A DNA stretch of 16,380 bases from an uncultured delta proteobacterium (GTDB lineage Bacteria > Desulfobacterota > Binatia > UBA9968), in the NCBI GenBank assembly GCA_963755715.1, contig CAVWLW010000015.1, positions 1-16,380 on the forward strand. The letters are read 5' to 3'. A program made the translations under genes and the position numbers. Position 1 is the stretch's first letter. The number at the start of each line of letters is the position of its first letter. The notes under the pieces are model-generated. The model did no database searches and was not told the DNA's origin. It saw nothing but the letters and a program-made list of their open reading frames with translations. Below are positions 175-16,380 of this stretch, piece by piece.

Positions 175-1018
175 CTAGTTTGAAGAAAGCAAATAATTGA
201 TCGGCAATTTTTCGGCGCGATAGTATTCCTGCAAAAATTCATCCTGATTCGCATAGCGGCGCTTGGCTATGAGCCGGCCCTGAAACGAGACGATCAACGG
301 ATCGACATCGAACGGGTAAGGCGATGACCGCGGCGCGGCTTTCGTCTTTGATCGTGAAAGTTAGAATCGTGTCCTCTTTGCCGGGTCGGGTGGGCACAGG
401 CACATTGCTCATCGTATTGCTCGGGCCATTCTTTCGCTGCGCGCTGTTGAACGGATAGCGATTGCAAACGAACTGGCCCATCTGATCGTAGACTTCCATC
501 AGTTTAAAGTTCGTCCACAATTGCTCATTGGATACGTGGCCGCAGTATTCCTGGGAACTTTTTAATTTTTCCATGAGCTCGGCGCGATAGCTTTCCTGTT
601 CGGTGAGAAATTCTTTGACCTCGGGATAAACCGCGTAATCCGGCATGTATGGGAGCAACCCCCGGCCTTGAGTGAGCAGACCGTCGGAGTGGAGAGAAAC
701 GATATAGCCCGCATAGGGATCTTGCTCAGCGAGGCGATGGATGCCATGGCGGTAAAAATCCAGCCAGACTTTGCCGCCGAGATGTTTGATGCTGCCGATA
801 TAATCCGGCGGCAATCCTTCGTCGTTGACCTGCGGCTTGATCTCCCAGTCCCACCAGCCGGTGTCGTGCTCCTGAGCGGCTAAGACCATCGCGGCGTAAG
901 GAGAAGGTCGCGCGAAAGTGTCATTGCCCCAATGGGCCGCGAACCAGCCGGTGACTCTCGAGTGATCGACCTGGAGGATCAGCAACAATCGGTTCTCATC
1001 ATAGGGGCAAACCATCAT
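175..1018 (-). CDS. DUF3891-family protein (putative HD-like metal-binding protein), ~280 aa, one frameshift near 325
   Basis: ATG at 1018 follows GAGGAGG; the ORF-track extension to 1225 overlaps the upstream gene. Motifs are QVDH, AAHWGN, EHDTGWWDWE, SLH and EVYDQ. Removing one base near 325 restores SPYPFDVDPLIVSFQGRL...EYYRAEKLPINYLLSSN* (stop at 175), collinear with the paralog at 7583-8429. Confidence 0.75.
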
Positions 1019-1043
1019 AAGATGTGTCCTCCTCAAATCGCGC

Positions 1044-2009
1044 TTAAGCCAGCAGCCGTCGAACGGTGCCGCCGAAGATGCCGTCGAGCTCGGCGTTCGA
1101 CCAGGATCTCGCTTGCAGCGCGGCAACCGTGTCTTTCTCGGCGTTCGGCACATGCGGCACATCCGTGCCGAAAACCAGTGTGTCGACGCCCCAAGTCGCG
1201 CGAGCGCATTCCAATGCCGGACCATGAGTACACGCCGTGTCGAAGTAACAGCGGCGTAAATAATAACTGGGCGGGTGCGGGCAATTCGAATAACGTTGGT
1301 AGCCGCGATCGATGCGGTCCAAGATCATCGGCAAACCGCCGCCGAGGTGCGACCAAACGATCTTTACGTCGGGGCACTCTTCGAGAGTCCCGGAGAGAGC
1401 GAGCTTCGTTGCCGCCATCGCCGTTTCACCCGGATATCCGACGGAAAGAAAGGTTCCGGGATCGTTCTGCGGCGCATCGCAGGGGCAGGTCGGATGCACG
1501 AGCACCATGAGCTTGCGGCGGCTCATCTCGCGCCAAAAGTTTCGGAGCTCGGGCGCCTGCAATTGAAAGTCGCCGACATTAGTTGCGATGCCGACGCCGG
1601 CCGCGCCCATACCGAGAGCGCGATCCAACTCGTGCACCATCTCGTTATGCTTCGTGCACGGCAGTACCGCGACAAAGCGAAACCGACTTGGATATTGCCG
1701 GCAAACCGCGGCAAGCCCGTCGTTGACAAAGCGCGCTGCCGCCGCGTCGCCGGAGCCGGCCCAGCCAATATTTAGCGCGCCCACGGAAAGTATCGCCATG
1801 CCAATTCCCGCTTGGTCCATCGACGCTAGTCGCTCAGGCAAATCGTCCTGCTCCGCGGGCATCGACATGACGTGGCTGCCACGATAGAGGAGCGACTGGC
1901 CGCGCGGATTATCGATGAGCTTGAAGTCGGCGCGGCTCTTGATCACTTCGGTGAAACAGCCCGCGGGATAGATATGGGCATGAACGTCGATCATTTGCTG
2001 AACGGTCAT
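1044..2009 (-). CDS. Amidohydrolase family 2 protein (ACMSD/LigW-like metal-dependent decarboxylase or hydrolase)
   Basis: 321-aa ORF with DVHAH (HxH), 'ARFVNDGLA', VLVHP, SHLGG, YFDT and FGTD motifs typical of Amidohydro_2. Confidence 0.85.
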   Translation of the reverse strand: MTVQQMIDVHAHIYPAGCFTEVIKSRADFKLIDNPRGQSLLYRGSHVMSMPAEQDDLPERLASMDQAGIGMAILSVGALNIGWAGSGDAAAARFVNDGLAAVCRQYPSRFRFVAVLPCTKHNEMVHELDRALGMGAAGVGIATNVGDFQLQAPELRNFWREMSRRKLMVLVHPTCPCDAPQNDPGTFLSVGYPGETAMAATKLALSGTLEECPDVKIVWSHLGGGLPMILDRIDRGYQRYSNCPHPPSYYLRRCYFDTACTHGPALECARATWGVDTLVFGTDVPHVPNAEKDTVAALQARSWSNAELDGIFGGTVRRLLA

Positions 2010-2022
2010 CGGGATTTACTCA

Positions 2023-4352
2023 TCATAAATTAGCATCCGAAGTTTCTCCGGCAGCTTCGCGGTCTTTTAGCAGCTGCAAAATGTAGTCCGGTTTGAGCGG
2101 CAATTTTTTGACTTCGACACCCAACGCATTGGATACGGCGTTTGCCAACGCCGCACCCGCCGCGGTGATGCCGCCTTCGCCCGCTCCCTTCACGCCGAGG
2201 GGATTATGCGGGCTCGGAAAATCCTCCGTGGAGATAAGCTGCGCTTTGGGCATCTCCATCGCCGTCGGCAGCAAATAGTCCATGAAGTTCGTCGACAACG
2301 GTTGCCCGTCTTCATCGTAGACAAACTCTTCCAGCAGCGCGCCACCGATTCCTTGTGCCAGACCGCCGGCCATTTGGCCTTCGATGATCATGGGATTGAT
2401 TTTTCGGCCGACGTCTTCAGTCACGAGATAATCGAGGATCTTGATTTTGCCGGTTTCCTTGTCGACTTCCACCGCTGCTACGTGCACGCCGTAAGGAAAC
2501 GGCCGCTTATCAGTGGCGAAAAAATCTTCTTCGGAAATCCCGGGCGTCATGCCGCTTTTGAGCGCCGGACCGGGCAACGCCAAGCGCGCGAGCTCGGCGA
2601 AGCCGAGAGACCGTTCCGGCGCGCCGCGGGCAATGACGCGGCCATCGCTAAGAATCAGGTCAGCGGTATCGATTTCCAACTTAGCCGATGCCAGCCGCAA
2701 GAGTTTGTCTTTGACTTTACGCGACGCGCCGACCGCGGCGCTGCCCGCCATCACCGTGGAACGGCTGGCGTTGCTGCCGTTGCCGTAAGGAACTTTCGCC
2801 GTGTCGCCGTGCACGACGCGGACATTCTCTATGGCAACTTGCAGCTCATCGGCAACGATCTGGCTCAGCGCCGTCGCGATGCCCTGGCCGACCGAGTTGC
2901 AGCCGGAGTAAAGGACGACCTGGCCGGCATTGTCGACTTCGATCCGAGCATACTCCCATGGGCCGATGCCACTGGTTTCGACGAAGCAGCCGATGCCGAC
3001 GCCGACAGCGCGGCCTTCGAGCTTTGCCGCGGCGCAGGTAGCCTTGAGATCTTCATAGCCGAAGCGCTCCAGCGCGCGCTCGAACTGGCCGGGCAAGTCG
3101 CCGGTGTCATAAACCATGTAATGAAATGGATGCTTGCCGAGATCGTAAGGCATTTCTTCATGGCGGATCAGGTTGCGTCTTCTTACGTCGGCGGGATCGA
3201 GCTTGAGACGATGCGCGATGATATCTATTAACCGTTCGCGGACGAAATTCGCTTCGTAGCGTCCCGGGCTCCGGTAGGTGCCTACGGGCGTCTTGTTGGT
3301 CAGAACGCAGAAAACGTTGCAGCGATAGTTTTTTACTCGAAACGGTCCGCGCAGCATGGCCGAAGCGGCGATGGCGGGGACGCCGCCATGGGTGCTGCGT
3401 ATAGCCGCCCATGTCGAACAGAATCTCGGCGTCCATCGCCATGATCGTGCCGTCTTTCTTCACGCCGATTTTTACCCGGTGATTTTGCTGGCGCGACTGG
3501 TTCATGGCTTTGAGATTTTCCGAGCGGTCTTCGATCCAGCAAATCGGTTTCCGAAAATGCCTGGCGGCGAAGGGAATCAGAAAATCTTCCGGATAGAATT
3601 CGCCGCGCGCGCCAAAGCCGCCGCCGACTTCCGGCTCTATAAAGTGAATACAGCTCTGCGGCAGACCGATGAGGTCGGAAAGAATGCGCCAATTGGTATG
3701 GGTCATCTTGGTTGGACCCCACATGGTCAGAAGCCCGCGTCCCTCGTCCCACTCCGCTACCAGGCCGCGATTCTCCAGCGGAACGGCGGAATGACGCTGG
3801 GTCGAAAATTCCTCCTCGACGATTAAGTCGGAATCGCGGAAAGCGGCGTCGACATCGCCGACGTTAACTTGAAAATTGGCCGCGATGTTGTTCGGCACCG
3901 CGTCATGGAGCTGCGGCGCGCCCGGTTTCATGCTCTCGCTAGCGTCGATGACGGCGCCCAGCGCGGCGTATTCAACGTCGATCAATTCGAGCGCGTCCTC
4001 AGCGATATAACGATTCTCCGCGACGACCACGGCGATGGGGTCGCCGACGTAGCGGACTTTCGTGGTCGCAATCGGCGTTTGTTGCGAGCGCTCCAAGCCG
4101 GGAATGACTCCGGTGCGCATGGGAATAGTTTTCAGCTCCCGGCATGTCGGCGGCCGTCAGGACGCCGACGACGCCGGGGAATTTCAGCGCAGCCGCCGCA
4201 TCGATTTTGACGATGCGCGCATGCGCGTGCGTGCTGCGCAGAATCGCGGCATGCACCATGCCGGCGCGGTGAATATCGCCGACATATTTGCCGATGCCGC
4301 GCAAAAGCCGCACGTCTTCTTTCCGCTTAACTCTTGAGCCGATGTAGGGCAT
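2023..4352 (-). CDS. Xanthine dehydrogenase family molybdopterin-binding large subunit (CoxL/CutL-like), ~775 aa, two frameshifts (~4136 and ~3396)
   Basis: ORF pieces 3999-4352, 3158-4120 and 2023-3357 join on removal of two single bases, giving DMPGLKTIPMRTG and DMGGYTRTHGGVPAIAASAMLRGP. Motifs are RKEDVRLLRG, ILRSTHAHARI, VRYVGDPIAVVVA, VGGGFGARG, GQG, DVGRKINPMIIEGQMAGG and KGAGEGG (catalytic Glu). Confidence 0.9.
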
Positions 4353-4425
4353 TGAGGTTCTCGTTCCTTGTATCTTCAGACGCGCTGCTGTCGAGTCACT
4401 TTGTCGCCTGGAAAGTCACTCTCCA

Positions 4426-4577
4426 TCCGTCATTCCGGCGGAAGCCGAGCCTTATCGTCACCCCGGTGAAAACCGGGGTCCATCCCGTCCTCTTTAAACT
4501 GGATACCGTTTTCCAACGGTATGACGAGATCCTTCGGTCTATCACCTCAGGATGCCGGCATTCGCCGGCATGACGGA
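4426..4577. repeat. Nested REP/BIME-like palindromic elements in the intergenic region between the S and L subunit genes
   Basis: Outer inverted termini TCCGTCAT (4426) and ATGACGGA (4577); inner termini TCGTCA (4455) and TGACGA (4527). Perfect hairpins: CCCCGGT-GAAA-ACCGGGG (4461-4478), ATACCGTT-TTCC-AACGGTAT (4503-4522) and ATGCCGGC-ATTC-GCCGGCAT (4552-4571). Confidence 0.7.
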
Positions 4578-4584
4578 CTTCACT

Positions 4585-5106
4585 TCACGGGCAAAGGGAT
4601 TTCAACCATCCCAAAATGAAATTAAGATTTGGCGTTATTGACTGATTCGCCGCTTCCTGGATCGCGGTGACGATATTTTGATAGCCGGTGCACCTGCACA
4701 GGTTGCCGCTGAGCCATTCACGAATCTCCAGTTCGCTTGGATTCGGTATCTCTTTTAATAATGCTTCCGCGGTGAGCAAGATTCCCGGCGTGCAAAAGCC
4801 GCACTGCAGGCCGTGCAGTTCCCAGAACTTTTCTTGCAGCGGGTGCAGCTCGGTTGCGTTCGGCGCGATGCCTTCCACGGTTTTTAGATCAGCGCCGTTC
4901 ATTTGAACGGCGAAAAGCAGGCAGGAGCGCACCGGCTCGCCGTTGAACAGGATCGTGCAAGCGCCGCAAACGCCGTGCTCGCAACCGACGTGGGTGCCCG
5001 TGAGTCCGAGATCGTCACGCAAGAAATCGGTGAGAAGCTTGCGCGGTTCTACTTCGCCGGCATATTCGTGGCCGTTGATTGTTAGGCGTACCTGACGGGT
5101 GCTCAT
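4585..5106 (-). CDS. Molybdenum hydroxylase small subunit, 2x[2Fe-2S] (CoxS/CutS-like)
   Basis: [11 protein letters not shown]...SC and QCGFCTPG...GNLCRCTGY motifs. The start overlaps the stop of the M subunit gene (ATGA). The last ~20 residues look non-conserved. Confidence 0.93.
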
Positions 5107-5987
5107 TGCGGCTTTCCTTTCATCTGCTCGGCTGCCCGCTGTGCCGCTTGAGTCAGCGCGCGTCGCGCCAGGGCTGCGCAGGCGTCGCGGCGGTACTCAG
5201 CGCTGGCGTGAATATCTGAATCCTGTTCCAAGTTCTCAGTTGCGCGTCGCGCGGCGTCGCGAAACAGCGCTTCCGACGGCCTTTGCCCGAGCAAACACTC
5301 TTCCGCTTTACGCACCCGCATCGGCGTTGTGCCGGTGAGCGTAAGCCGGGCATGATGGATGCAGCCGTTTACATCGAGAGCGAGGACCGACGCTGCTCCC
5401 GCCAGGGCAAAATCGCCATGTCGACGGCTGACTTCTTGGTACGACCAACCGGCATTCGCCGGCAACACCGTGACGGCTATTTCCAACAACAGCTCGTCCG
5501 GCTGCAGCGCGGTGGTCATGTAGGAAAGAAAAAAATCTTCAGCGCCCACGGAGCGCCGGGTCGTCTTCGCCGCCAGGACCATCGACGCGTCCAGCGTTAC
5601 CATGGCGACGGGCAATTCCGCCGAAGGAAAGGCGTGCGCCAAACTGCCGCCGACCGTGCCGCGGTTGCGTATTTGAATATGGCCGATAAAAGCAGCGGCG
5701 TCGCGCAGCAGCGGCCAACGCTTGGCAACCTCAGGCGAACGCTCGAGCTCGCGCTGGCGGGTCGTCGCGCCGATGTGCAACGCATGATCGTCCGCTCTCA
5801 AATAGCTCAGCTCATTGACGCCATTCAGATCGATCAGATGCGCCGGCCGGATGAGACGAAAATTCATCAGCGGCACGAGACTCTGGCCGCCGGCAAGCGG
5901 GCGCGCTTGATCGCCGAACTGCGCCATCAAGCCCAGCGCTTCGTCAACGGTGGTTGGATCGTGGTAATCAAATTTTGCCGGTTTCAT
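5103..5987 (-). CDS. Molybdenum hydroxylase medium subunit, FAD-binding (CoxM/CutM-like)
   Basis: MKPAKFDYHDP start with LAGGQSLVPLMNFRL, QIRNRGTVGGSLAHA, RRHGDFALAG and DIHASAEYR motifs. Confidence 0.93.
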   Translation of the reverse strand: MKPAKFDYHDPTTVDEALGLMAQFGDQARPLAGGQSLVPLMNFRLIRPAHLIDLNGVNELSYLRADDHALHIGATTRQRELERSPEVAKRWPLLRDAAAFIGHIQIRNRGTVGGSLAHAFPSAELPVAMVTLDASMVLAAKTTRRSVGAEDFFLSYMTTALQPDELLLEIAVTVLPANAGWSYQEVSRRHGDFALAGAASVLALDVNGCIHHARLTLTGTTPMRVRKAEECLLGQRPSEALFRDAARRATENLEQDSDIHASAEYRRDACAALARRALTQAAQRAAEQMKGKPQ

Positions 5988-6081
5988 ATTCGATTCGTTT
6001 GCATCGACTTCATATCGGAATGATGAATCGCTAAAATAATTGCTTTACGTGCGCGGATCAATCGCAACCGCGAGGCGGCTT

Positions 6082-6846
6082 TTACCACATCACCTGGCCG
6101 CCATTGGGTTGAATCAGCTGGCCGGTAATAAAGCTGGCGCGGTCGCTCAGCAAAAAATCCACCACAGCCGCGACTTCCTCGGGCCGCCCGAGCCGCTTGA
6201 TCGGCAGCCGGCTTTCGAAGACGTTGCGGGCATTGGCGTATTCTTCCGGAGTCCTTCCCGCGCGAAGCAGTGGTGTATCGATAGGGCCAGGACCAATGGC
6301 ATTGACGCGGATGCCGTGGCTTGCGAATTCGAGCGCCAACGATTTCGTGAGGGAATACAACGCCGTCTTTGCCGCGCAATAATTCGCCGCGTTAGGAACG
6401 CCGACGATCGCGAAGTCGGATGATGTAATCACGATCGATCCGGATTTTTGTTCGACCATATGCCGCAGTACCGCCTGGCAAAAGTTGAAGGTTCCGGTGA
6501 CATGCGTGTCGATCAGCAAAGACCATTGCGCGAGAGTCATGTCGGCAACGGTTGCACGGGCGTTGAGTCCGGCGTTGCTGAACAGACAATCGATCTTGCC
6601 AAATTTTCCGATGACTTCAGCGATCCAAGCTTGCACTTGGGCCTGATTGCGCACGTCGACGATGCCAGTGTAAGCCGTATGGCCGGCCGAGCGAATCAGT
6701 TCGGCGCTCTCATTGATTCCGTCTTCTTTGAGATCGCAGATGCACACCGAATCGCCGCGCTGCGCCAAACGGACCGCCGTGGCTCGCCCCATGCCGCTGC
6801 CGCCGCCGGTGATGACGGTGACGCGGGAATCCCGCGCCGCTACCAC
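6082..6846 (-). CDS. Short-chain dehydrogenase/reductase (classical SDR, FabG-like)
   Basis: TGGGSGMG Rossmann motif, SNAG, catalytic YCAAK, IRVNAIGPGPIDT and FITGQ. GTG start with GGAGG upstream, overlapping the end of the preceding SDR. Confidence 0.9.
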   Translation of the reverse strand: MVAARDSRVTVITGGGSGMGRATAVRLAQRGDSVCICDLKEDGINESAELIRSAGHTAYTGIVDVRNQAQVQAWIAEVIGKFGKIDCLFSNAGLNARATVADMTLAQWSLLIDTHVTGTFNFCQAVLRHMVEQKSGSIVITSSDFAIVGVPNAANYCAAKTALYSLTKSLALEFASHGIRVNAIGPGPIDTPLLRAGRTPEEYANARNVFESRLPIKRLGRPEEVAAVVDFLLSDRASFITGQLIQPNGGQVMW

Positions 6847-7565
6847 AGTGTGGAACCTCCGTTGACGCGCACGTCTTGGCCGACGAGGTAGGAACTGTCG
6901 TCGCTCAACAAAAACATGCAGGCTTCGGTCATATCCTTTACGTCGCCGATGCGACCCAACGGGATTCGGGATTTTCTCGACTCCATGATTTCATCGGACA
7001 GTACAGCGCGCGGCATCGGCGTGTCGGTAATCACCGGCGAGATCGTGTTCACCCGGATGTTTTCAGCGGCGGATTCGACGGCGAGAGAGCGCGCCAATCC
7101 GAGGATACCGCCTTTGGATGCCGCGTAATGCGCGACATTGACTCCGCCGGTGCGCGCGGCCATCGACGAGAACATGACGATGCGGCCGAATTTTCGCGGC
7201 CGCATGAAACGCAGCGCGGCGCGACAGCAAAGGAAATAGCCCGTCAAATTGATTTGCAGTGTGCGCTGCCAATCTTCATACGAAAGCTCCAAAAAAGGCC
7301 GCGGACGATAGATCCCCGCGCAGCAGACCAGATAATCGATGTTGCCGGCAGTCTTGCCGATGGCGTCGAATGTCGTGTCGACCGCCGCTTCATTGGCGAC
7401 ATCGACGGTGTGAAAGCTCCATTCCGACGCATGCGCTGGTTTCAAATCGAGCACATGCACGATAGCGCCTTCATCGTGCAGCCGCCGCGCGATCGCGCCG
7501 CCAATCCCGCCACTGCCGCCGGTAATGACCGCAACGCGGCCGTGGTGTTCATTTGCTTGAGGCAC
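6840..7565 (-). CDS. Short-chain dehydrogenase/reductase (classical SDR, FabG-like)
   Basis: TGGSGGIG, CCAG in place of NNAG, FSS, catalytic YAASK, IRVNTISP and YLVGQ..VNGG. Confidence 0.9.
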   Translation of the reverse strand: MPQANEHHGRVAVITGGSGGIGGAIARRLHDEGAIVHVLDLKPAHASEWSFHTVDVANEAAVDTTFDAIGKTAGNIDYLVCCAGIYRPRPFLELSYEDWQRTLQINLTGYFLCCRAALRFMRPRKFGRIVMFSSMAARTGGVNVAHYAASKGGILGLARSLAVESAAENIRVNTISPVITDTPMPRAVLSDEIMESRKSRIPLGRIGDVKDMTEACMFLLSDDSSYLVGQDVRVNGGSTLW

Positions 7566-7582
7566 TGTTTTTCCAATTCGCC

Positions 7583-8429
7583 TTATGCCGACGCCAGCGT
7601 GTGATTCACGGTAATGCGCTCGGCGCGATAAAACTCGCCGAGAAAGTCTTCGCCGTCTTTGTACGTCCGGTTCGGTACCAAGCGCGCGCTGAACGAGACT
7701 GGTAGCGGATCGATGTCAAAAGGATACGGTCGCAGCAGCGCCTTGTTTTCACCGATCGTATCGATATTGATTTTCACCGCCGGCTGGCCGTGTTTCGTCG
7801 GTATATCGACATTATTCAGCGAATTTGTCGGGCCGAGCTTGCGCGCCTTGCTGTTCAACGGATAACGATTGCAGACAAACTGCGCCAATTGATCGAAGAC
7901 CTCCATGTATTCGTAGTTGGTCCATATCTGCTCCTCTGAACAATGTTGCTTGAACTGTTCGGATTGGCGCAGCTCTTCGAGTAGCTTTAGCCGCAGCGTC
8001 TTCCTGGTGATCGACGTACGCCTTCACTCGCGGGTCTGAAGTGCGGTCAGGTGGATAGGCATATTTCCCATAGCCGGCGTTCATCAGCGCGACGCCGTGC
8101 ATCGCCATCAACATGGCCGAGTAAGGGTCGCGGTTGAGCACGCGGTCCACCGAGTTTTTATAGAAATCGAGCCGGAGTTGCCCGAGATATTTGAGGCTGC
8201 CGTCGTGATAGTCGAGAGGGAACCCCTTGTCGTTGAGCGCCGACGGTTTCATCTCCCACTCCCACCAGCCGATGTCATGCTCGGTGGCGGCCAATACGAC
8301 GGAGGAATAAGGCTCGGGTCGATCGAAGTGTGGGTTGCCCCAATGAGCGGCGAAGTAGCCCGCCACCCGCGAGTGGTCGATCTGCAGCGCCAAGATGATC
8401 CGCGCATCGTCGTATGGATAGGCCATCAT
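7583..8429 (-). CDS. DUF3891-family protein (second paralog), ~281 aa, one frameshift near 8000
   Basis: GGAGG before the ATG at 8429. Motifs are QIDH, AAHWGN, EHDIGWWEWE, AMH and EVFDQ. ORFs 7812-8429 and 7583-7906 join on removing one base near 8000 (DHQETLRLKLLEELRQSEQFKQHCSEEQIWTNYEYMEVFDQ). Confidence 0.75.
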
Positions 8430-8484
8430 AATTTTTCTACCTCCTCGAAATTAACTTGCCCCGATTCCGAACCGGACGGGCTGC

Positions 8485-9462
8485 TTACGGTTTCTTCCCT
8501 GATAGCTCGTTCCGCGCTTCTTTGACAAACTGGAAATCGACGACGCGAGACAAGGCAACACGGTTTTTGATCGCTCCGGTCTGTCGGGCAATTTCCAGAT
8601 CCTTCTCGATCACTTCATCCGCGACGACGCCGTTCGGCGGATACGCCTCAACCATTTGGCCATAAGCCTCCTCCGCTTGTTCGATCCGAATCTTGAACCA
8701 CTCGACCATGATGCCGGCGACTTCTTTCTTATTTTTTGCGTCTCGGAGGAAGTCGATGCCTCTGAGAGTTGCGCGTACCGCCCGGCGCAAGAGATCCGGT
8801 TTTTTAGCGATATTCTCGTCTGAAGCGCCCAGCCCGGCCATGGGCAATCGCATAACATCGCCGAAGTACGCCAGCTTTCGCAAGCCGGCTTTCTCGGCTA
8901 CCGTTTGCCATGGCACCGAAATTACCGCCGCGTCGACGTGGCCATTTTGCATCGCTTGAATGCTCGTATTGTGATCTCCGGTCACGACCAAAGCGACGTT
9001 CTTATCGGCATCCAAATTATTCTGCGCCATGAATTCCTTGGTCATGAGGTGAACAGAGCCGCCGAGCGAAGCGATGCCTACGGATCTGCCTCTGAGCGCG
9101 CTGACACTATTCACGCTGGGTTTCGCGACGAGATAGTACGCGGGCCGATCGGCAACGACCATGAGACTCTTCACCGGCATACCCTGCGCGGCTGCGCGCA
9201 CGATGGAGCCATGAGCCGTGGCGAATTCAACCTGTCCCGTCACCACCGCCGTCACGCTGATATTCGGTCGCATGAGTATCAGCTCAGGCCGCAAGCCTTC
9301 CTGTTGATAGAAGCCGAACTTGCTCGCTGCCAACATCGGCATTGTGGTGAAACTCGTCGATGGATAGGCGATTCTGATGTTATCGACCGCCGCCACCCGC
9401 CATGGGTGGCAAACTATCGCGAGTAAGATCAGCGCAAACAGCAATGCCGGACAAGTGCTCAT
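8485..9462 (-). CDS. ABC-type substrate-binding protein (NMT1/SsuA/TauA-like), ~325 aa
   Basis: Likely start is the ATG at 9462 (MSTCPALLFALILLAIV... signal peptide); the ORF-track start at 9657 overlaps the upstream gene. Family-like segments are IRIAYP, GFYQQEGL, LRGRSVGIASLGGS and GHVDAA. Confidence 0.85.
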   Translation of the reverse strand: MSTCPALLFALILLAIVCHPWRVAAVDNIRIAYPSTSFTTMPMLAASKFGFYQQEGLRPELILMRPNISVTAVVTGQVEFATAHGSIVRAAAQGMPVKSLMVVADRPAYYLVAKPSVNSVSALRGRSVGIASLGGSVHLMTKEFMAQNNLDADKNVALVVTGDHNTSIQAMQNGHVDAAVISVPWQTVAEKAGLRKLAYFGDVMRLPMAGLGASDENIAKKPDLLRRAVRATLRGIDFLRDAKNKKEVAGIMVEWFKIRIEQAEEAYGQMVEAYPPNGVVADEVIEKDLEIARQTGAIKNRVALSRVVDFQFVKEARNELSGKKP

Positions 9463-9500
9463 CTGAAGAAATTGATTTTGCGCTCTCGCCACGGAAAATC

Positions 9501-10001
9501 TCAAAACAAGATCTCCCCGGCAAATAAGATGGCGACAGGCGCTTGCATCGAATTCATCGACTTGACTGCGTTGCTGATAGCGCCGCGAACATCTTCGGTT
9601 TTTTCCACAGACCGATGCGTGATGCGCATGCTGTCGAGCAACGGCTTGGTGGCCCAACCGAACGGCACCGAAAACCAGCGTTCGTCGCCCAGCTCCCCCC
9701 GATGGCTGATCAACAGCAGCATAGGAACGCCAAACGCCATCGGTCCGCGCAAGAGAGCGTAGGTGCCTAACGTAAATCCGGTATTTTCCACCAGGAGCGC
9801 CGGTTTCATTCCGCCCAACCAGGCTCCCATGCAGACTCCGACACCGTCATTCTCGCTGGCCACTTGAACGTAGGTGATCTTGGGATCTGCTGAGAGCGGC
9901 AAGTAGAGCTCTTGGAATGCCGAGTCGGGCAGACAGGCGACGAAATTGACCCCGGATTTGACTAATGTTTCATGGGCTGCTTTGGCAGCATCGACGTTCA
10001 T
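9501..10001 (-). CDS. TPP-dependent decarboxylase alpha subunit (sulfopyruvate decarboxylase ComD / phosphonopyruvate decarboxylase N-domain-like), 166 aa
   Basis: ATG at 10001 with GGAGG upstream. GVNFVACLPDS, SENDGVGVCMGAWLGGMKPALL and LLISHRGELGD match the ComD-like pattern. Confidence 0.8.
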   Translation of the reverse strand: MNVDAAKAAHETLVKSGVNFVACLPDSAFQELYLPLSADPKITYVQVASENDGVGVCMGAWLGGMKPALLVENTGFTLGTYALLRGPMAFGVPMLLLISHRGELGDERWFSVPFGWATKPLLDSMRITHRSVEKTEDVRGAISNAVKSMNSMQAPVAILFAGEILF

Positions 10002-10047
10002 CCGATTTCTTCCTCCGAATGTTACAGCCGATTGAAGCGCATCCGAT

Positions 10048-10671
10048 TTATGCTTTGGGTGCGCCGAGAATTTCAATCTGCGCGATGCGCTCGACATGCC
10101 GGACGAATTTGTATTTGTTCTCTTGTCCATCCATTTTTGGTCCCGCGCCGCGGCCAAGGGCCTGGATCTTGGCGACGAGCATTGACGGTCCCTCGCTAGC
10201 CAAAAAAGCTTCAACTTCCGCGCGCAGCAGAGTTTTGTCGCGCAAGGTGCGCACGCTCTCGATACCGGATGCTTTGGCAATCCCGGCAATGTTCGTTCCG
10301 GTCGCGGTTTGACTCTTGGGACCGCCGCGGCTGCCGAAAAGCTGCTCGTTGTCGAAGACCACAATGTAAAGATTTTTCGGCTGACGCGTTCCAATCACCG
10401 GCAAGATGCTCGGCGCCAGCAACATACTGCCATCGGTATCCAAGGCGAAAACTCGACAATTGGGTAAAGCCGTCGCCAGACCCAAAGCCACCTGACTGAC
10501 CATCCCCATGCCGACGAGATACAGGTTTCCCGGCCGGTCGATCACTTGATAGGTGTCCGCGGTGGTGCCCGCGAGCGCGCTGACGATGAGATCCGTCTCC
10601 TTCAAAGCGGGTTTAAGTGCTGCCAAAATTTCTTGTCTTTGCGGTTTCGAATCGTCGTTGCTCATACGCAC
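10048..10671 (-). CDS. TPP-dependent decarboxylase beta subunit (ComE-like, TPP/Mg-binding domain)
   Basis: DRPGNLYLVGMGMVSQVALGLA, a TPP motif variant DTDGSMLL...VVFDN, GGPKSQT, GPSMLVAKI and KYKFVR. The start could be 10665. Confidence 0.8.
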   Translation of the reverse strand: MRMSNDDSKPQRQEILAALKPALKETDLIVSALAGTTADTYQVIDRPGNLYLVGMGMVSQVALGLATALPNCRVFALDTDGSMLLAPSILPVIGTRQPKNLYIVVFDNEQLFGSRGGPKSQTATGTNIAGIAKASGIESVRTLRDKTLLRAEVEAFLASEGPSMLVAKIQALGRGAGPKMDGQENKYKFVRHVERIAQIEILGAPKA

Positions 10672-10719: not shown

Positions 10720-11672
10720 CTACTTTCCGTCCGCGATTTCGCGCGCGACGGAGAAATCGGTAAGCTTGTCAAAGTTTGTTAGCTTGCCTTCGAAGGGCGT
10801 TCCCAAAAGCGTGTTCTCGATCGCTTTCTGTGAAGGAATGCCATTACGCGTGGCATATTTCGTTACCAGGCCATAGATATAATCCACTATACCCGTTTCG
10901 GATACGCCGAGTCGTCTCTGGATCAAGGCTTTTACTTCAACCGGTTGAGTCTGCATGAAGTCGAGCGAGCGCAGCAGTGCACGAATGCATCGTTTCACTT
11001 CATCGCGGTTTTGTTCCAGCTTTTTCTGGCTGACACCGGCGCCTGCCAGCAGGGTCTCCATATACTCACCCAAAGGAAGAAGCGTATGGCCGCCGACTTT
11101 GTGCGCGAAAAAATTCGCCGGTACCTGTGACACGATGGCGGCCAGTGTACCATTTTGCAGTCCGGCTATTCGGGCGGCATCTTCGCCGACTGCCAGCATC
11201 TTGATCTGCTTGTCGGGATCGATGCCGTTGGCCTTGAGGCCGAATCGTAGCGCGTACTCGGTAGAGGCGCCGTAACGACTGATGCCGACCGTCTTACCTT
11301 TCAGTTCGGCGAGGGATTTAATATCGTGCCGGGCAATCAATTCGAAGAAAGTGCGGTTATAAATTCCGGCGACGGTGATTAAAGGCGCGCCGGCAACGCC
11401 GGCACGGAGAACGCTCGATACGCTTTGATTGTAGTCAACGTCGCCGGTGATCAATCCTTTCACGGCGAGATCCGAGCGCATCACGACGTATTGCGCCGCG
11501 AGTCCTTCCTTTTCAAAGAATTTTTTTTCAATTGCGACGAGATAAGGGATGCTGGTCAAAGTCATCGACGACGTCGCGATGACGATGTCCTTAGCTTGAA
11601 GCGGTGTTACGCGGCCAAAACCACAAGAAGCGAGATCATACTGAAATAAGGAATCCTTAAATGAATCATCAT
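10720..11672 (-). CDS. ABC-type substrate-binding protein (NMT1/SsuA/TauA-like), one frameshift near 11610
   Basis: The 281-aa ORF 10720-11565 (AIEKKFFEKEGL, LKGKTVGISRYGAST, GIDPDK) lacks a signal peptide. Adding one base near 11610 joins MMIHLRIPYFSMISLLVVLAA to VTPLQAKDIVIATSSMTLTS. Confidence 0.8.
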
Positions 11673-11741
11673 GCTCTTAAAAATTCGCGCTAGACACAAC
11701 CATGAAAGAAATCCGCCAACGCGCCGACATCGGCATTGCGT

Positions 11742-13679
11742 GCTTCACTTCACGCCTTCTCTCTGCAGGCGATCGGTAAATTGGGTGGTGATGAAGGATT
11801 CGAGATTCATTTTCTTCACCTCCGGATCGGTCTGGGCCAAGAAATCTCTGACGACCCGGATGCCGGCCAGTGGCGGAGAAGGGATATCCTTGAGCACCTT
11901 GGCATTCATGCGCCATGTCTCTTCCAACGCCTCGCGGTCATCAAGTCGCATAAAGCGAGCGATAGCGCCGAGCGCCTGTTCTTTGTCCGTCTTGTATAGG
12001 CGGATCGCTTTGACGAAGGCGCGGAGTACGCCGTAAATCTCTTTAGGATTTTTCTCGACGCTCGATTGCATGACGACGAAGGCTCCCGACGACGAGGGAA
12101 ACCCTAGTTCGCCGAGGTCAGCGAGTTCGCGCAGCCCGGCCTTTCTTGCGACCAGCGTAAGAGGCGGGACGACAAAGGTCGATTGGACGTGACCGTTTCT
12201 GAGCGCCGCGAACCGCGCGGTCTGGGCGCCAATCTGTAAGAGCGTCACGTCCTTTTGCGCCTGCAGGCCAAACATCTCTAGAACTTTGCGCGCGCGAAAA
12301 TCGCTATAGTCGCCGAGCCGATCGATGGCCAAGCGCGTGCCTTTTAGCTCCGCGGGAGTCTTGATACTTGACTCCGCAACGAACGAAGCCACTTCCTTGT
12401 CCGTCACCCCGCCGACGAAACGTAGGTCCGCGCCGTGCGCGGCGGCGCGAATCGGGCTCGCGGCGGCGACGATGGCCATCCGAATATCCCCCGAGACGAG
12501 CGCCTGCGAGACCTGCGGCCCGCCTATGTATACGAACGTCGGTCGAATGCCTTCTTGCTCGAGCAGTTTGTGCTGCTCGATTAAACTGATGAAGGCGTAG
12601 GTGCCGCCGCGCGATACATAGCCGATGGGAAAGTCGACTTGTGCTGTAGCCGGTCGAATGGAACCAAGAATAAAGACGATCAGTAACACGGAAATACCGG
12701 AGATTTTTTGCGCAATCATTTTTACAATGTTCTATCTATGTTTAAGGAATACTTTCATCCGTATAGGTATAGAGTACTGTCCCGCCATTTACCATTTAAT
12801 GGAGTCGAGCACTTCTGGAAAATAAATCGTTGGAACTTACTGGACCCTGTAGCTGCTAAATGTTTTGTCCACGAATCCGCTCTCCGAAAGCGTTCTGATC
12901 ACGCTATCGTCCACAAGGTCGGTCACTTTAACCTCGCCGACGCGAGGATTGTAGGCTTTCATGAATCGTTGCAAGTTTTGCAGCCCTTCCACGGGTGGAT
13001 AAAGCGTAATGTCCAGATCTCTCTGCAGATAGCGATAACCTTGCTCAGCGACCGCAGGATCGCTGATTTTTAAATGCTGCATGAGTGTTTTGACGACTGT
13101 CGACTTGTGCGTAGGAGACTTCACGAAGGCAAGTCCTTCGATCAGAGCTTGAAGCACGTTTGTCGTCAGGTCGAGATTTTTTTGTAGCAAGGCTTTTCTG
13201 ACAATTATCCCGGGAACTGAGAGTCTTAATATTCGCTGCGTACAGGTCTGTGAGAATACGAAAGCCTTTCGACCGCAATTCTTCGGCGATCGCGCCGTTG
13301 AAAAAAGCTGCTTCAATATTGCCCCCCTCGAGGGCGCCTCTCAACACCGACTGGTCGCCGATGGGGAGCAATCGAATATTGTCTCGCTGTTCGTCAATGC
13401 CCAAATTCTCCAGGCCCAGTTTCGTGGTAATCCATTGGGTTCCACCGATGCTGACGACGCCGATCCGTTTACCAGTCAAGTCTTTAGGTTTTTGAATTTC
13501 CGGTTTTGTAACTAACAAATGCGTCAGACGGCTGGCAAAAGACGCTACGAATCTGAGATCCACGCCGCTCCCCGCCACAGGCAAGATTCCCGATCCGCCG
13601 CCGTAACTCAGATCGATATGCCCGGAGAGCAGTCCGGCGATTTGAACCGAAGTGGTTCTTACAAAAATCAATTCCGGAT
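11742..13679. repeat. Left arm of a ~1.94 kb imperfect inverted duplication
   Basis: The reverse complement matches 13764-15699 throughout, from ATCC(G/C)GAATTGATTTT to GAAGGCGTGAAGTGAAGC, with scattered substitutions and single-base indels. Confidence 0.97.
11745..12719 (-). CDS. ABC-type substrate-binding protein (NMT1/SsuA/TauA-like), 324 aa, copy A
   Basis: Signal peptide, PIGYVS, EQEGIRP, ALVSGDI, ELKGTRLAIDRLG and ARFAALRNGHVQ. It differs from 14722-15696 at 6 of 324 residues. Confidence 0.88.
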   Translation of the reverse strand: MIAQKISGISVLLIVFILGSIRPATAQVDFPIGYVSRGGTYAFISLIEQHKLLEQEGIRPTFVYIGGPQVSQALVSGDIRMAIVAAASPIRAAAHGADLRFVGGVTDKEVASFVAESSIKTPAELKGTRLAIDRLGDYSDFRARKVLEMFGLQAQKDVTLLQIGAQTARFAALRNGHVQSTFVVPPLTLVARKAGLRELADLGELGFPSSSGAFVVMQSSVEKNPKEIYGVLRAFVKAIRLYKTDKEQALGAIARFMRLDDREALEETWRMNAKVLKDIPSPPLAGIRVVRDFLAQTDPEVKKMNLESFITTQFTDRLQREGVK

Positions 13680-13763
13680 CGATGCCATATTTGGCGAAAA
13701 ATCCTTGTTCCTGGGCGACCCAAAGTGGCGCTACCGAAGCTTGTATCGCCGAATAGCCGATAA
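12837..13763 (-). pseudogene. ABC-type substrate-binding protein (NMT1/SsuA/TauA-like), 5'-truncated at the inversion junction, frameshift near 13213
   Basis: Reads IGYSAIQASVAPLWVAQEQGFFAKYGIDPELIFVR...DKTFSSYRVQ*. No native start or signal peptide; the apparent start at 13791 is antisense sequence of the other arm. The truncation may be an assembly artefact. Confidence 0.75.
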
Positions 13764-14604
13764 ATCCCGAATTGATTTTCGTAAGAACCACTTCGGTTCA
13801 AATCGCCGGACTGCTCTCCGGGCATATCGATCTGAGTTACGGCGGCGGATCGGGAATCTTGCCTGTGGCGGGAGCGGCGTGGATCTCAGATTCGTAGCGT
13901 CTTTTACCAGCCGCCTGACCCATTTGTTAATTACAAAACCGGAGATTCAAAAACCTAAAGATTTAACGGGTAAACGGATCGGCGTCGTCAGCATCGGCGG
14001 AACCCAATGGATTACTACGAAACTAGGGCTGGAGAATTTGGGCGTTGACGAACAGCGAGACAATATTCGATTGCTCCCCATCGGCGACCAGACGGTTTTG
14101 GAGGCGCCCTCGAGGGTGGCAATATTGAAGCGGCTTTTTTCAACGGCGCGATCGCCGAAGAATTGCGGTCGAAAGGCTTTCGTATTCTCACAGACCTGTA
14201 CGCAGCGAATATTAAGACTCTCAGTTCCGGGATAATTGTCAGAAAAGCCTTGCTACAAAAAAATCTCGAACTGACGACAAACGTGCTTCAAGCTCTGATC
14301 GAAGGACTTGCCTTCGTGAAGTCTCCTGCGCACAAGTCCGACAGTCGTCAAAACGCTCATGCAGCGTTTGAAGATCAGCGATCCTGCGGTCGCTGAGCAA
14401 GGTTATCGCTATCTGCAGAGAGATTTGGACATCACCCTTTATCCGCCCGTGGAAGGATTGCAAAACTTGCAACGATTCATGAAAGCCTACAATCCTCGTG
14501 TCGGCGAGGTTCGAGTGACCGACCTTGTCGACGATAGCGTGATCAGGACGCTTTCGGAGAGCGGATTCGTGGACAAAACATTTAGCAGCTACAGGATCCA
14601 GTAA
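13764..14604 (+). pseudogene. ABC-type substrate-binding protein, second copy, 5'-truncated, frameshifts near 13871, 14100 and 14339
   Basis: Begins abruptly at PELIFVRTTSVQIAG and ends DKTFSSYRIQ*. Alignment to the left-arm copy shows three single-base indels. Confidence 0.75.
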
Positions 14605-14721
14605 GTTCCAACGATTTATTTTCCAGAAGTGCTCGACTCCATTATTGATAAATGGCGCGACAGTACACTATACCTATACCGGATGAAAGGATTTCTTAAA
14701 CATAGATAGAACATTACAAAA

Positions 14722-15696
14722 ATGATTGCGCAAAAAATCTCCCGTATTTCCGCGTTACTGATCGTCTCTATTCTCGGTTCCATTCGACCGGCTACAGCAC
14801 AAGTCGACTTTCCCATCGGCTATGTATCGCGCGGCGGCACCTACGCCTTCATCAGTTTAATCGAGCAGCACAAACTGCTCGAGCAAGAAGGCATTCGACC
14901 GACGTTCGTATACATAGGCGGGCCGCAGGTCTCGCAGGCGCTCGTCTCGGGGGATATTCGGATGGCGATCGTCGCCGCCGCGAGCCCGATCCGCGCCGCC
15001 GCGCACGGCGCGGATCTACGTTTCGTCGGCGGCGTGACGGACAAGGAAGTGGCGTCGTTCGTTGTGGAGTCAAGTATCAAGACTCCTGCAGAGCTAAAAG
15101 GCACGCGCCTGGCCATCGATCGGCTCGGCGACTATAGCGATTTCCGCGCGCGCAAAGTGTTAGAGATGTTTGGCCTGCAGGCGCAAAAGGACGTGACGCT
15201 CTTACAGATTGGCGCCCAGACGGCGCGGTTCGCGGCGCTCAGAAACGGTCACGTCCAATCGACCTTTGTCGTGCCGCCTCTTACCCTGGTAGCGAGAAAG
15301 GCCGGGCTGCGCGAACTCGCTGACCTCGGCGAGCTCGGGTTTCCCTCGTCGTCGGGAGCCTTCGTCGTCATGCAATCGAGCGTCGAGAAAAATTCTAAAG
15401 AGATTTACGGCGTACTCCGCGCATTCGTCAAAGCGATCCGCCTATACAAGGCGGACAAAGAACAGGCGCTCGGCGCTATCGCTCGCTTTATGCGACTTGA
15501 TGACCGCGAAGCGTTGGAAGAGACATGGCGCATGAATGCCAAGGTGCTCAAGGATATCCCTTCTCCGCCACTGGCCGGCATCCGGGTCGTTAGAGATTTC
15601 TTGGCCCAGACCGATCCGGAGGTTAAGAAGATGAATCTCGAATCCTTCATCACCACCCAGTTTACCGATCGCCTGCAGAGAGAAGGCGTGAAGTGA
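14722..15696 (+). CDS. ABC-type substrate-binding protein (NMT1/SsuA/TauA-like), 324 aa, copy B
   Basis: Intact ORF nearly identical to 11745-12719, with 6 substitutions, three of them in the signal peptide. Confidence 0.88.
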   Translation: MIAQKISRISALLIVSILGSIRPATAQVDFPIGYVSRGGTYAFISLIEQHKLLEQEGIRPTFVYIGGPQVSQALVSGDIRMAIVAAASPIRAAAHGADLRFVGGVTDKEVASFVVESSIKTPAELKGTRLAIDRLGDYSDFRARKVLEMFGLQAQKDVTLLQIGAQTARFAALRNGHVQSTFVVPPLTLVARKAGLRELADLGELGFPSSSGAFVVMQSSVEKNSKEIYGVLRAFVKAIRLYKADKEQALGAIARFMRLDDREALEETWRMNAKVLKDIPSPPLAGIRVVRDFLAQTDPEVKKMNLESFITTQFTDRLQREGVK

Positions 15697-16380
15697 AGCG
15701 AAGGAACAGTGTGGGCGGTGGGCGAAATTTTCTTTTGCTGCTCGCAATCCTATCGCTGCCACTCACGCCAAAGTCCGAATGCTACGCAGCCGATAAGCCG
15801 TTGCAGAAAGTGCGCGCCGGCTACGTTAGCCCGAGCACGGATAATGTCCTGCTGCCGATCGCGCAAAAACGCGGCTTTCTCGCTCAGCACGGAATCGAAG
15901 TCGAGATCATCGCTCTGCGCGGCGGCGTGCAGATGGCGCAGGCGTTGCTTAGCGATAGCCTACAGTTCGCGCAAATGGCAGGCTCAGTAGTGGTCCGCTC
16001 GGTTTTGGCCGGCGGCGATCTCGTCATGATTGCCGGTTTCGTTAACCGAATCAGTTATCTCATGGTCTCACGGCCTAACATCAACGGCATGAAAGATTTG
16101 ACCGGCAAGAAATCGCCACGGCATCTATCGGCGGTTCGGTGGATTCAGTGCTGCGGCTCGGCCTAAAGGCTTCGGGAATCGACCCGCAGCAAGCAACCCT
16201 ATTGCCGGCGGGACCGCCGAACGCACGCATTGCCGCTCTGGCCAGCGGCCAAATGGATGCGACGATCGTGTTGCCCGAAAATCTCGGTGTTGCTGAAAAA
16301 GCCGGACTCAAAATTCTCAAAGATCTCTCAGAGGTCGACCTACAGATTCAGCACACAGGTTTGGTGAGTGGCCGATGGTG
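15693..16380 (+). CDS. ABC-type substrate-binding protein (NMT1/SsuA/TauA-like), partial, frameshift near 16111; runs off the window edge
   Basis: GTG overlaps the upstream TGA. Signal peptide followed by KVRAGYVSPS and GFLAQHGIEVE. Adding one A near 16111 continues DLTGKKIATASIGGSVDSVLRLGLKASGIDP...ARIAALASGQMDAT, open to the window end. Confidence 0.82.

Follow-up and report, generated by a model that had tools for sequence, protein, structure and literature searches.

A conserved gene block of a Binatia order joins a molybdenum hydroxylase, a split thiamine pyrophosphate enzyme and HD-fold DUF3891 proteins, possibly for the catabolism of a pyridine-type acid

In the picolinate (pic) cluster of Alcaligenes faecalis JQ135, a three-subunit molybdenum (Mo) hydroxylase, PicA, is encoded together with an amidohydrolase-family decarboxylase, PicC (available part of 10.1101/530550), and in lumazine cluster I of Cupriavidus sp. 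LA-1 a Mo dehydrogenase is followed by an Amidohydro_2 enzyme that acts on a dihydroxylated heterocycle (available part of PMC12391406). Here we describe a block of eleven genes at positions 175 to 10671 of a 16,380-nucleotide stretch of DNA from an uncultured delta proteobacterium of the class Binatia (the window, contig CAVWLW010000015.1). In this block a three-subunit Mo hydroxylase and an Amidohydro_2 enzyme are accompanied by a split thiamine pyrophosphate (TPP) enzyme and two DUF3891 proteins. We found that the block is a conserved, modular unit across genomes of its order. We tentatively propose, at a little short of an even chance, that it is a catabolic module of this order for a pyridine-type acid, in which 2-oxo-acid decarboxylation, Mo hydroxylation and ring decarboxylation would be combined and DUF3891 would act on the product of the Mo enzyme. 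Its newest element is the pairing of DUF3891, an HD-fold protein, with Mo hydroxylases.

By analogy, the block would work as the pic cluster does, with the TPP pair and DUF3891 added. The likeness extends to a homologue of 2,5-dihydroxypyridine dioxygenase (NicX/PicD-like), which is present in some variants of the block but only in some, and the block of the window has neither the four-component Rieske enzyme PicB nor PicDEFG. Conversely, the pic pathway, compared by its description and not by the Pic sequences, has no TPP step (thiamine is not mentioned) and no DUF3891 in the available part of 10.1101/530550. Lumazine cluster I, as far as the available part of PMC12391406 describes it, also differs: its amidohydrolase has two subunits, a decarboxylase of the prenylated-FMN (prFMN) type is added, and there is no TPP pair or DUF3891. 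In that pathway an Amidohydro_2 enzyme can isomerise the product of the Mo enzyme rather than decarboxylate it. An earlier, sequence-only reading of the window had not recognised the combination as a described pathway, and indeed no gene-for-gene match to the pic or lumazine pathways was found. The literature searched, mostly outside subscription journals and in main texts rather than supplements, contained no description of TPP, Mo and amidohydrolase enzymes combined with a pyridine, and the available part of PMC8262859 makes no mention of sulfopyruvate, xanthine dehydrogenase or decarboxylase.

All eleven genes lie on the minus strand, with intergenic gaps of 46, 38, 55, 17, -7, 94, -4, 232, 13 and 25 nucleotides in order of transcription. 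The co-oriented, tightly packed arrangement claimed by the sequence-only reading thus holds for most of the span, except that 232 nucleotides with a repeat separate CoxS from CoxL; of the binding-protein genes that it had described as interleaved, one lies inside the span and the remaining ones flank it. The features are as follows.
10720 to 12719, minus strand: two upstream NMT1-type binding-protein genes, which frequently accompany the block.
10048 to 10665, minus strand: ComE/RhiF-like TPP beta subunit (PF02775) with the diphosphate-binding domain and the TPP motif variant TDG...DN.
9501 to 10001, minus strand: ComD/RhiE-like TPP alpha subunit with the pyrimidine-binding domain (TIGR03845 below cut-off; PDB 9U8Q_A, 9IZ3_A).
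8485 to 9462, minus strand: NMT1/SsuA-type periplasmic binding protein (PF09084), optional.
7583 to 8429, minus strand: DUF3891a, HD-superfamily metal-binding protein (PF13030) with H19, H51-D52, H111 and D179; extra base near 7998.
6840 to 7565, minus strand: SDR1, classical short-chain dehydrogenase (SDR; PF13561) with TGxxxGIG and YAASK, optional.
6082 to 6846, minus strand: SDR2, classical short-chain dehydrogenase (PF13561) with TGxxxGMG and YCAAK, optional; overlaps SDR1 by 7 nucleotides.
5103 to 5987, minus strand: FAD subunit of the Mo hydroxylase, CoxM type (PF00941, PF03450).
4585 to 5106, minus strand: 2x[2Fe-2S] subunit of the Mo hydroxylase, CoxS type (PF01799, PF00111); overlaps CoxM by 4 nucleotides.
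4353 to 4584, no strand: spacer of 232 nucleotides with a short repeated element resembling repetitive extragenic palindromes (REP-like); 13 further blastn matches in the genome.
2023 to 4352, minus strand: molybdopterin subunit of the Mo hydroxylase, CoxL type (PF01315, PF02738, PF20256), with the Kdh-like loop TYRSPGRYE; extra bases near 3396 and 4136.
1044 to 2009, minus strand: Amidohydro_2 enzyme of the ACMSD/PicC/IDCase type (PF04909) with H10, H12, H172, H221, R232 and D283 kept.
175 to 1018, minus strand: DUF3891b, second HD-fold paralogue (PF13030), about 48% identical to DUF3891a; extra base near 325.

The window is the whole of contig C15 of its source genome (7.4 Mb, 93.6% complete), which holds about 14 ComE, 34 CoxL-type, 37 Amidohydro_2, 52 SDR and 6 DUF3891 loci; because these families are so heavily expanded, co-location within this genome alone is weak evidence. 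Linkage was therefore read from 100 genomes of the order, where all counts are lower bounds owing to fragmented or frameshifted assemblies. The CoxL clade was present in 47 genomes, the amidohydrolase orthologue in 43 (38 of them with the CoxL clade, 35 of these adjacent) and the ComE clade in 34 (31 with the CoxL clade, 25 of these within 15 kb). All three were linked in 24 genomes, 18 from family f3 and 6 from family f1, the source genome included, so that the neighbourhood check proposed in the sequence-only reading came out in favour of the same orthologues co-occurring. A scan anchored on CoxL gave 51 loci, 49 of them at 65% identity or more. Two families keep the orthologues linked in one and the same order, at 54-80% identity, and a third has them in a variant form. 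The complete gene order of the window block recurs in genome G011, and many f1 genomes have the order DUF3891a-(SDR1-SDR2)-CoxM-CoxS-CoxL-amidohydrolase-(DUF3891b), the genes in brackets being variable, while f3 has ComE-ComD-CoxM-CoxS-CoxL-amidohydrolase without SDRs, binding proteins or DUF3891 at the locus. The core of the block is thus CoxM-CoxS-CoxL, the amidohydrolase and the ComDE pair, with DUF3891a co-inherited. The eleven genes do not make up a single fixed pathway: the SDRs, the binding proteins and DUF3891b need not be present, and another ComDE clade can take the place of the pair.

In the ComE tree, the window copy and all linked copies formed one clade (27 of the 50 rows, support 100/100) separate from 10 other paralogues of the source genome; matches shorter than 120 amino acids or with stops were omitted from it, two own-genome paralogues among them. 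The ComD and CoxL trees were quick trees, to which long-branch warnings apply; the ComD tree agreed with the ComE clade, and CoxL formed its own clade with the loop GTYRSPGRYE. In G003, G004, G037 and G041, the place of the first ComDE clade next to the same CoxL is taken by a second one. No match in 130 sampled genomes from other orders of the class reached the CoxL clade (two were about 45% identical), no ComDE, amidohydrolase or DUF3891 match was found at 13 loci of sister Mo paralogues (42-48%), and plasmid searches gave no copy of the block, the best identities being 45% for CoxL, 39% for ComE and 34% for the amidohydrolase. A chance mosaic was rejected on the conserved gene order, the ComE clade and the co-occurrence counts; the outcome that the sequence-only reading had named as fatal to its proposal, a lineage-specific shuffle whose genes do not co-occur, did not arise.

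The three subunits of the Mo enzyme carry the FAD, 2Fe-2S and molybdopterin domains and the catalytic Glu (GAGEGG) of the xanthine oxidase family. The best solved relative of CoxL is KdhL (PDB 7DQX), with 568 bits compared to 490 for the next. As in Kdh of Arthrobacter nicotinovorans (available part of PMC8305194), CoxL has the YRxPG loop, with TYRSPG where Kdh has AYRAPG and with YRxPGRYE common to both, and keeps the equivalents of F269, R383 and E748. Aerobic CO dehydrogenase (form I CoxL) was rejected: the loop is GTYRSPGRYE and not AYXCSFR, and the intact G011 orthologue scored 521 of the 991 bits required by TIGR02416. The amidohydrolase is closest to ACMSD (E 2.2e-25) and retains the site of ACMSD-type decarboxylases (HxH, His, His, Asp and the barrel Arg), with H10, H12, H172, H221, R232 and D283 invariant in 6/6 orthologues aligned. 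The same site is kept across the ACMSD/IDCase/gamma-resorcylate decarboxylase family, from which the enzyme differs by its identity of about 30%, a Ser at the position of Arg47 and a different invariant Arg (R36).

The TPP enzyme is split into separate pyrimidine- and diphosphate-binding subunits with a TPP motif. The ComE-like subunit matched PDB 9IZ3_B (E 8.7e-16) and 9U8Q_G, and the ComD-like subunit 9U8Q_A (E 7.8e-16) and 9IZ3_A. The split alpha/beta architecture and the TPP motifs are shared with the ComDE/RhiEF heterodimers (PDB 9IZ3; available part of PMC12141560) and the 9U8Q pair; unlike ComDE/RhiEF as described there, the pair of the block scores below the curated cut-offs, has beta before alpha and stands among catabolic genes rather than those for coenzyme M or phosphonate biosynthesis. 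The scores were 108.7 against 147.95 for TIGR03845 (ComD-like), 102.9 against 221.5 for TIGR03846 (ComE-like) and 61.7 and 96.3 against 312.5 for TIGR03297 (Ppd), and a true ComDE sulfopyruvate or Ppd phosphonopyruvate decarboxylase was rejected on missing all three. The ComDE family name is itself uninformative, because there are about 14 ComDE pairs per genome. PDB 9U8Q/9U8R/9U8S, an unnamed split TPP enzyme for which the literature searched held no paper, has the TDG motif in common with the window pair, and the alpha subunit matches it best.

Beyond the block, 8/14 ComE loci of the source genome (5 islands) lie within 8 kb of a CoxL-type gene, compared with 1/14 near an amidohydrolase and 1/14 near an SDR; seen from the other side, 5/34 CoxL loci are near ComE versus 2.7% of random positions. 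The Mo partners belong to unrelated clades. In genome G071 the same ComDE clade stands ahead of two Mo genes of another clade, and on a Rhizobium tumorigenes plasmid (L132) ComDE occurs together with a Mo enzyme and an aldehyde dehydrogenase. Because ComE loci stand beside Mo enzymes of unrelated clades, the pattern fits a general relay from 2-oxo acid to aldehyde to acid, and the pairing of ComDE with xanthine-oxidase-family enzymes may be a general decarboxylase-aldehyde oxidoreductase module. The block also directs attention to a catabolic chemistry of the many split TPP enzymes annotated as ComDE or Ppd.

DUF3891 is a family of about 3,000 representatives at 50% identity, for which no paper was found in the literature searched. 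With a cut-off of 58% identity, placed at a gap in the identity distribution, DUF3891a orthologues were present in 49/100 genomes, 45 of which also had the CoxL clade (45/47 of the CoxL-positive genomes); neither was found in 49, DUF3891a only in 4 and CoxL only in 2. Two of the four 'DUF3891a only' genomes do carry CoxL (G004, G058), one ends in CoxM (G072), and in the last the gene precedes another Mo enzyme (G082). In f3, DUF3891a is unlinked to the block yet co-inherited. Among the metagenome loci, which were the best 80 of 555 by similarity, 57 contigs had enough flank to show the gene right after DUF3891a: SDR1 in 19, CoxM in 16, CoxL of another clade in 9, SDR2 in 1 and something else in 12.

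The H..HD..D motif of the HD superfamily is present in DUF3891: over 112 diverse members, H51 and D52 were conserved in 112 each, and H19, H111 and D179 in 110 each. Aligned by hhalign, DUF3891 scored 32 against HD, compared with 21 or less in 60 block shuffles, while Pfam HD itself hit 1/26 members (E 0.26), searches of PDB sequences gave nothing and a protein atlas search gave DUF3891 clusters only. The structure of the G011 DUF3891a was predicted with pLDDT 96 and pTM 0.93, and VIA-align listed 50 matches to this model at Z 5.0-7.0 and root-mean-square deviations of 3.4-5.8, none at Z 8 or above. By entry title or known family we take all 50 to be HD-type proteins (PPX/GppA, HD-GYP, HDOD, PhnZ, YfbR, Cas3 and phosphodiesterases); no subtype stands out, PhnZ (Z 6.3) being tied with other HD types. 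Foldseek returned no match at E 0.001 or better, its top match being PhnZ at E 0.11. Each of these lines is moderate, and motif, profile and fold agree; we conclude that DUF3891 is a divergent HD domain with an added beta-strand domain, which in the predicted model is built from both chain ends. According to the available part of PMC8177086, HD phosphohydrolases carry an Arg three positions ahead of the first His, the oxygenases have a six-ligand dimetal motif, and the few non-phosphatase HD enzymes known are three oxygenases and one lyase. Compared with that description, DUF3891 shares the core motif and the helical fold but has Gln in place of the phosphohydrolase Arg (position 16, 110/112), one invariant extra His and the added domain. 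Position 86 is His in 57/112 members, Arg in DUF3891a and Trp in DUF3891b. Because the Arg and one His are missing in DUF3891a/b, these residues favour a mononuclear non-phosphatase.

Other settings of the family were also seen. A divergent DUF3891 paralogue (about 30%) occurs in most Binatia genomes (L003, L112-L126), not beside Mo genes and often with Ldh_2, alpha/beta hydrolase, glyoxalase-fold and DUF1989 genes. At L230, L243, L245, L246, L256, L257, L261 and L177, DUF3891 lies immediately upstream of a different Mo enzyme with the loop TQLRGLGVPE (about 31% to the window CoxL), and in f2 (L041, L042) a single CoxM/CoxS pair is common to three CoxL paralogues of the clade, which alternate with DUF3891 genes.

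Several genes near the block point to a nitrogen ring. A NicX homologue (PDB 7CN3, E 1.7e-57), with the His/His/Asp positions aligned, lies in the operon in G008, G012, G019, L098 and L214, and 23/25 carriers of this homologue have the CoxL clade. The f3 block is flanked by an S/N-oxide reductase, a 3HAO-like cupin and a Rieske oxygenase. In addition, NicX-like dioxygenase genes occur with TenA/CADD-like (heme-oxygenase-fold) genes and an alpha/beta hydrolase (L035/L055, L040/L076, L046/L269, L098, L214 and L264-L268), a set that is a separate conserved uncharacterised module, and in f3 a NicX-like gene adjoins gentisate-type and TauD-type dioxygenases.

The reactions and the substrate that we infer follow the gene order, and build on the families, the cofactor motifs, the orthologous co-inheritance and the HD fold. 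Judged from these genes, the substrate is most likely a (hetero)aromatic acid, with an N-heteroaromatic one favoured. It would be captured by the binding proteins, after which the ComDE-like TPP heterodimer would take CO2 off a 2-oxo-acid side chain to leave an aldehyde; the optional SDR pair might feed in or interconvert an alcohol or hydroxy acid. The Kdh-like Mo enzyme would then put water-derived oxygen on the ring carbon next to the nitrogen, on the aldehyde carbon or on both, and the zinc-type Amidohydro_2 enzyme would strip the ring carboxylate from the hydroxylated product. DUF3891a/b, metal enzymes but probably not phosphatases, would act in conjunction with the Mo enzyme, most likely by hydrolysing or hydrating its oxidised (lactam) product. 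Ring cleavage would fall to genes that are not always linked, encoding NicX-like, 3HAO-like or gentisate-type dioxygenases. Both chemistries offered by the sequence-only reading, TPP-dependent decarboxylation to an aldehyde and ring hydroxylation followed by decarboxylation, still stand; its suggestion that DUF3891 supplies a missing step gains from the HD fold and the tightest co-occurrence with the Mo enzyme, although an accessory role stands beside it. In a bolder form, which is possible but on balance doubtful, DUF3891 would represent a catalytic class new to the HD superfamily: a metal enzyme other than a phosphatase (ring-opening hydrolase, hydratase or oxygenase) that obligately serves xanthine-oxidase-family hydroxylases. 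Together with the ComDE-like pair it would then form a route, so far undescribed, by which a widespread uncultured order handles N-heteroaromatic acids. The block gives this family a role that can be tested.

A number of observations weigh against the proposed pyridine-type pathway. CoxL is only about 38% identical to KdhL, the Kdh substrate residues W551 and E345 are replaced (N and G in the G012 orthologue), and no genes of the nicotine pathway were seen near the block. Among NCBIfam models, CoxL scores best with that of an aldehyde oxidoreductase (glyceraldehyde dehydrogenase alpha), at 687 of 790 bits and so below cut-off. In the amidohydrolase, Arg47/51 of the ACMSD insertion domain, which has a role with the substrate, is not kept, S49 being at the Arg47 position. 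The genome that the window comes from yielded no NicX homologue, and the genes that flank the f3 block are not independent because they all come from a single genus. All that is left in the sibling copy (contig C58) is ComDE, a binding protein, DUF3891a, CoxS and DUF3891c. The module is also loose: this ComE clade is missing from 16 of the 47 CoxL-positive genomes and the amidohydrolase from 9, and in 5 genomes the amidohydrolase occurs with no CoxL match, 2 of which do carry a frameshifted or missed CoxL. Finally, kin genomes are not independent, and Fisher values for the co-occurrence overstate the case.

Some of these points fit other explanations. The block might instead involve no ring hydroxylation and no nitrogen ring, which we regard as rather unlikely: the TPP pair would decarboxylate a 2-oxo acid, either aryl or aliphatic, and the Mo enzyme would serve as an aldehyde oxidoreductase, with the amidohydrolase removing CO2 from a hydroxy-aryl acid. 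This reaction sequence matches the gene order, agrees with the top NCBIfam model for CoxL and would account for the enrichment of own-genome ComE loci near CoxL-type genes of unrelated Mo clades and for the ComDE-Mo pairings in G071 and on the Rhizobium plasmid, but it leaves the Kdh-type loop and the NicX homologue in the operon unexplained and gives no account of the one third of Mo-positive genomes without this ComDE clade. An accessory or maturation role of DUF3891 towards enzymes of the xanthine oxidase family, in which it would handle the cofactor, deliver metal or serve as an extra subunit, would be compatible with either chemistry and seems unlikely to us. It would suit the tight co-occurrence with CoxL, which extends to genomes where the two are unlinked, the DUF3891 near each fetched CoxL paralogue of the clade in f2, the SDR or Mo subunit after DUF3891a in 45/57 metagenome contigs (9 of these being CoxL of another clade) and the orphan CoxS genes that adjoin DUF3891 on C58 and in G060. 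Yet only 2/34 CoxL-type loci of the source genome have DUF3891 nearby, six plasmid matches to DUF3891 lie in other settings (the four annotated ones without a CoxL neighbour), the divergent paralogue of most Binatia is not beside Mo genes, and the invariant metal site suggests catalysis.

Catabolism of an organosulfonate or phosphonate, with a sulfo- or phosphonopyruvate decarboxylase and DUF3891 as a PhnZ-like diiron oxygenase, was raised in the sequence-only reading as far as the substrate goes and has become very improbable. ComD, ComE and Ppd are the nearest families of the TPP pair, the binding proteins are SsuA-like (with scores below cut-off) and PhnZ came first in the non-significant Foldseek search; the missed cut-offs and the abundance of ComDE pairs speak against it, however, as does the absence of PEP mutase, Xsc, a sulfolactate enzyme or any other sulfonate or phosphonate enzyme from the annotated recurring neighbours. 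Moreover, DUF3891a/b lack the His 86 needed for a diiron site, and PhnZ ranks no higher in the fold comparison than other HD types. Least credible of all, and already largely refuted, is the idea that unrelated catabolic paralogues were shuffled together in this lineage alone, or that the block is an aerobic CO dehydrogenase accompanied by passenger genes. In its favour, all the families have undergone heavy expansion in the genome and gene content differs even between two copies in one assembly, but the orthologues keep their order in two families and a variant third, and the loop (TYRSPG versus AYRCSF in CO dehydrogenase) and TIGR02416 score of CoxL do not fit.

Compared with relatives, single extra bases, which the sequence-only reading does not mention, are present at about 325 (DUF3891b), 3396 and 4136 (both CoxL) and 7998 (DUF3891a). 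Short-read contigs lack the extra base at 4/4 of these places in run X1 and at 3/4 in run X6, and CoxL is intact in relatives (767-777 amino acids). Because the X1 and X6 contigs are without the extra bases, we take the four frameshifts as assembly errors, at most private to one strain; pseudogene decay was rejected on these contigs and the intact relatives. The sibling copy mentioned above (C58:44000-58330 of the same assembly, L001) is 92% identical; it has no SDRs, CoxM, CoxL or amidohydrolase, and its orphan CoxS lies between two DUF3891 genes, which suggests a co-binned strain or a deletion variant.

Upstream of the block, 11742 to 15699 is a fold-back of about 2 kb whose arms are 94.9% alike, with substitutions, and whose right arm runs on into a gene missing from the left arm. 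C58 has a third copy of the arm, 88% alike, and no contig bridging the fold-back was among those listed from the short-read runs; here two strain copies have probably been joined into a chimera. The upstream binding-protein gene is apparently frameshifted in both arms (12837 to 13791). Binding-protein paralogues number about 350 loci in the source genome, and SDR1 scored below every NCBIfam cut-off among the models shown. The window contained no Rfam family, promoter and terminator scans within it were at chance level only, and RNA run X17 gave only short scattered contigs. DNA of the block's lineage is common in soil metagenomes, where 14 runs contain near-identical DNA that covers half of the words or more. 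In G037, one CoxL copy is interrupted by an insertion element.

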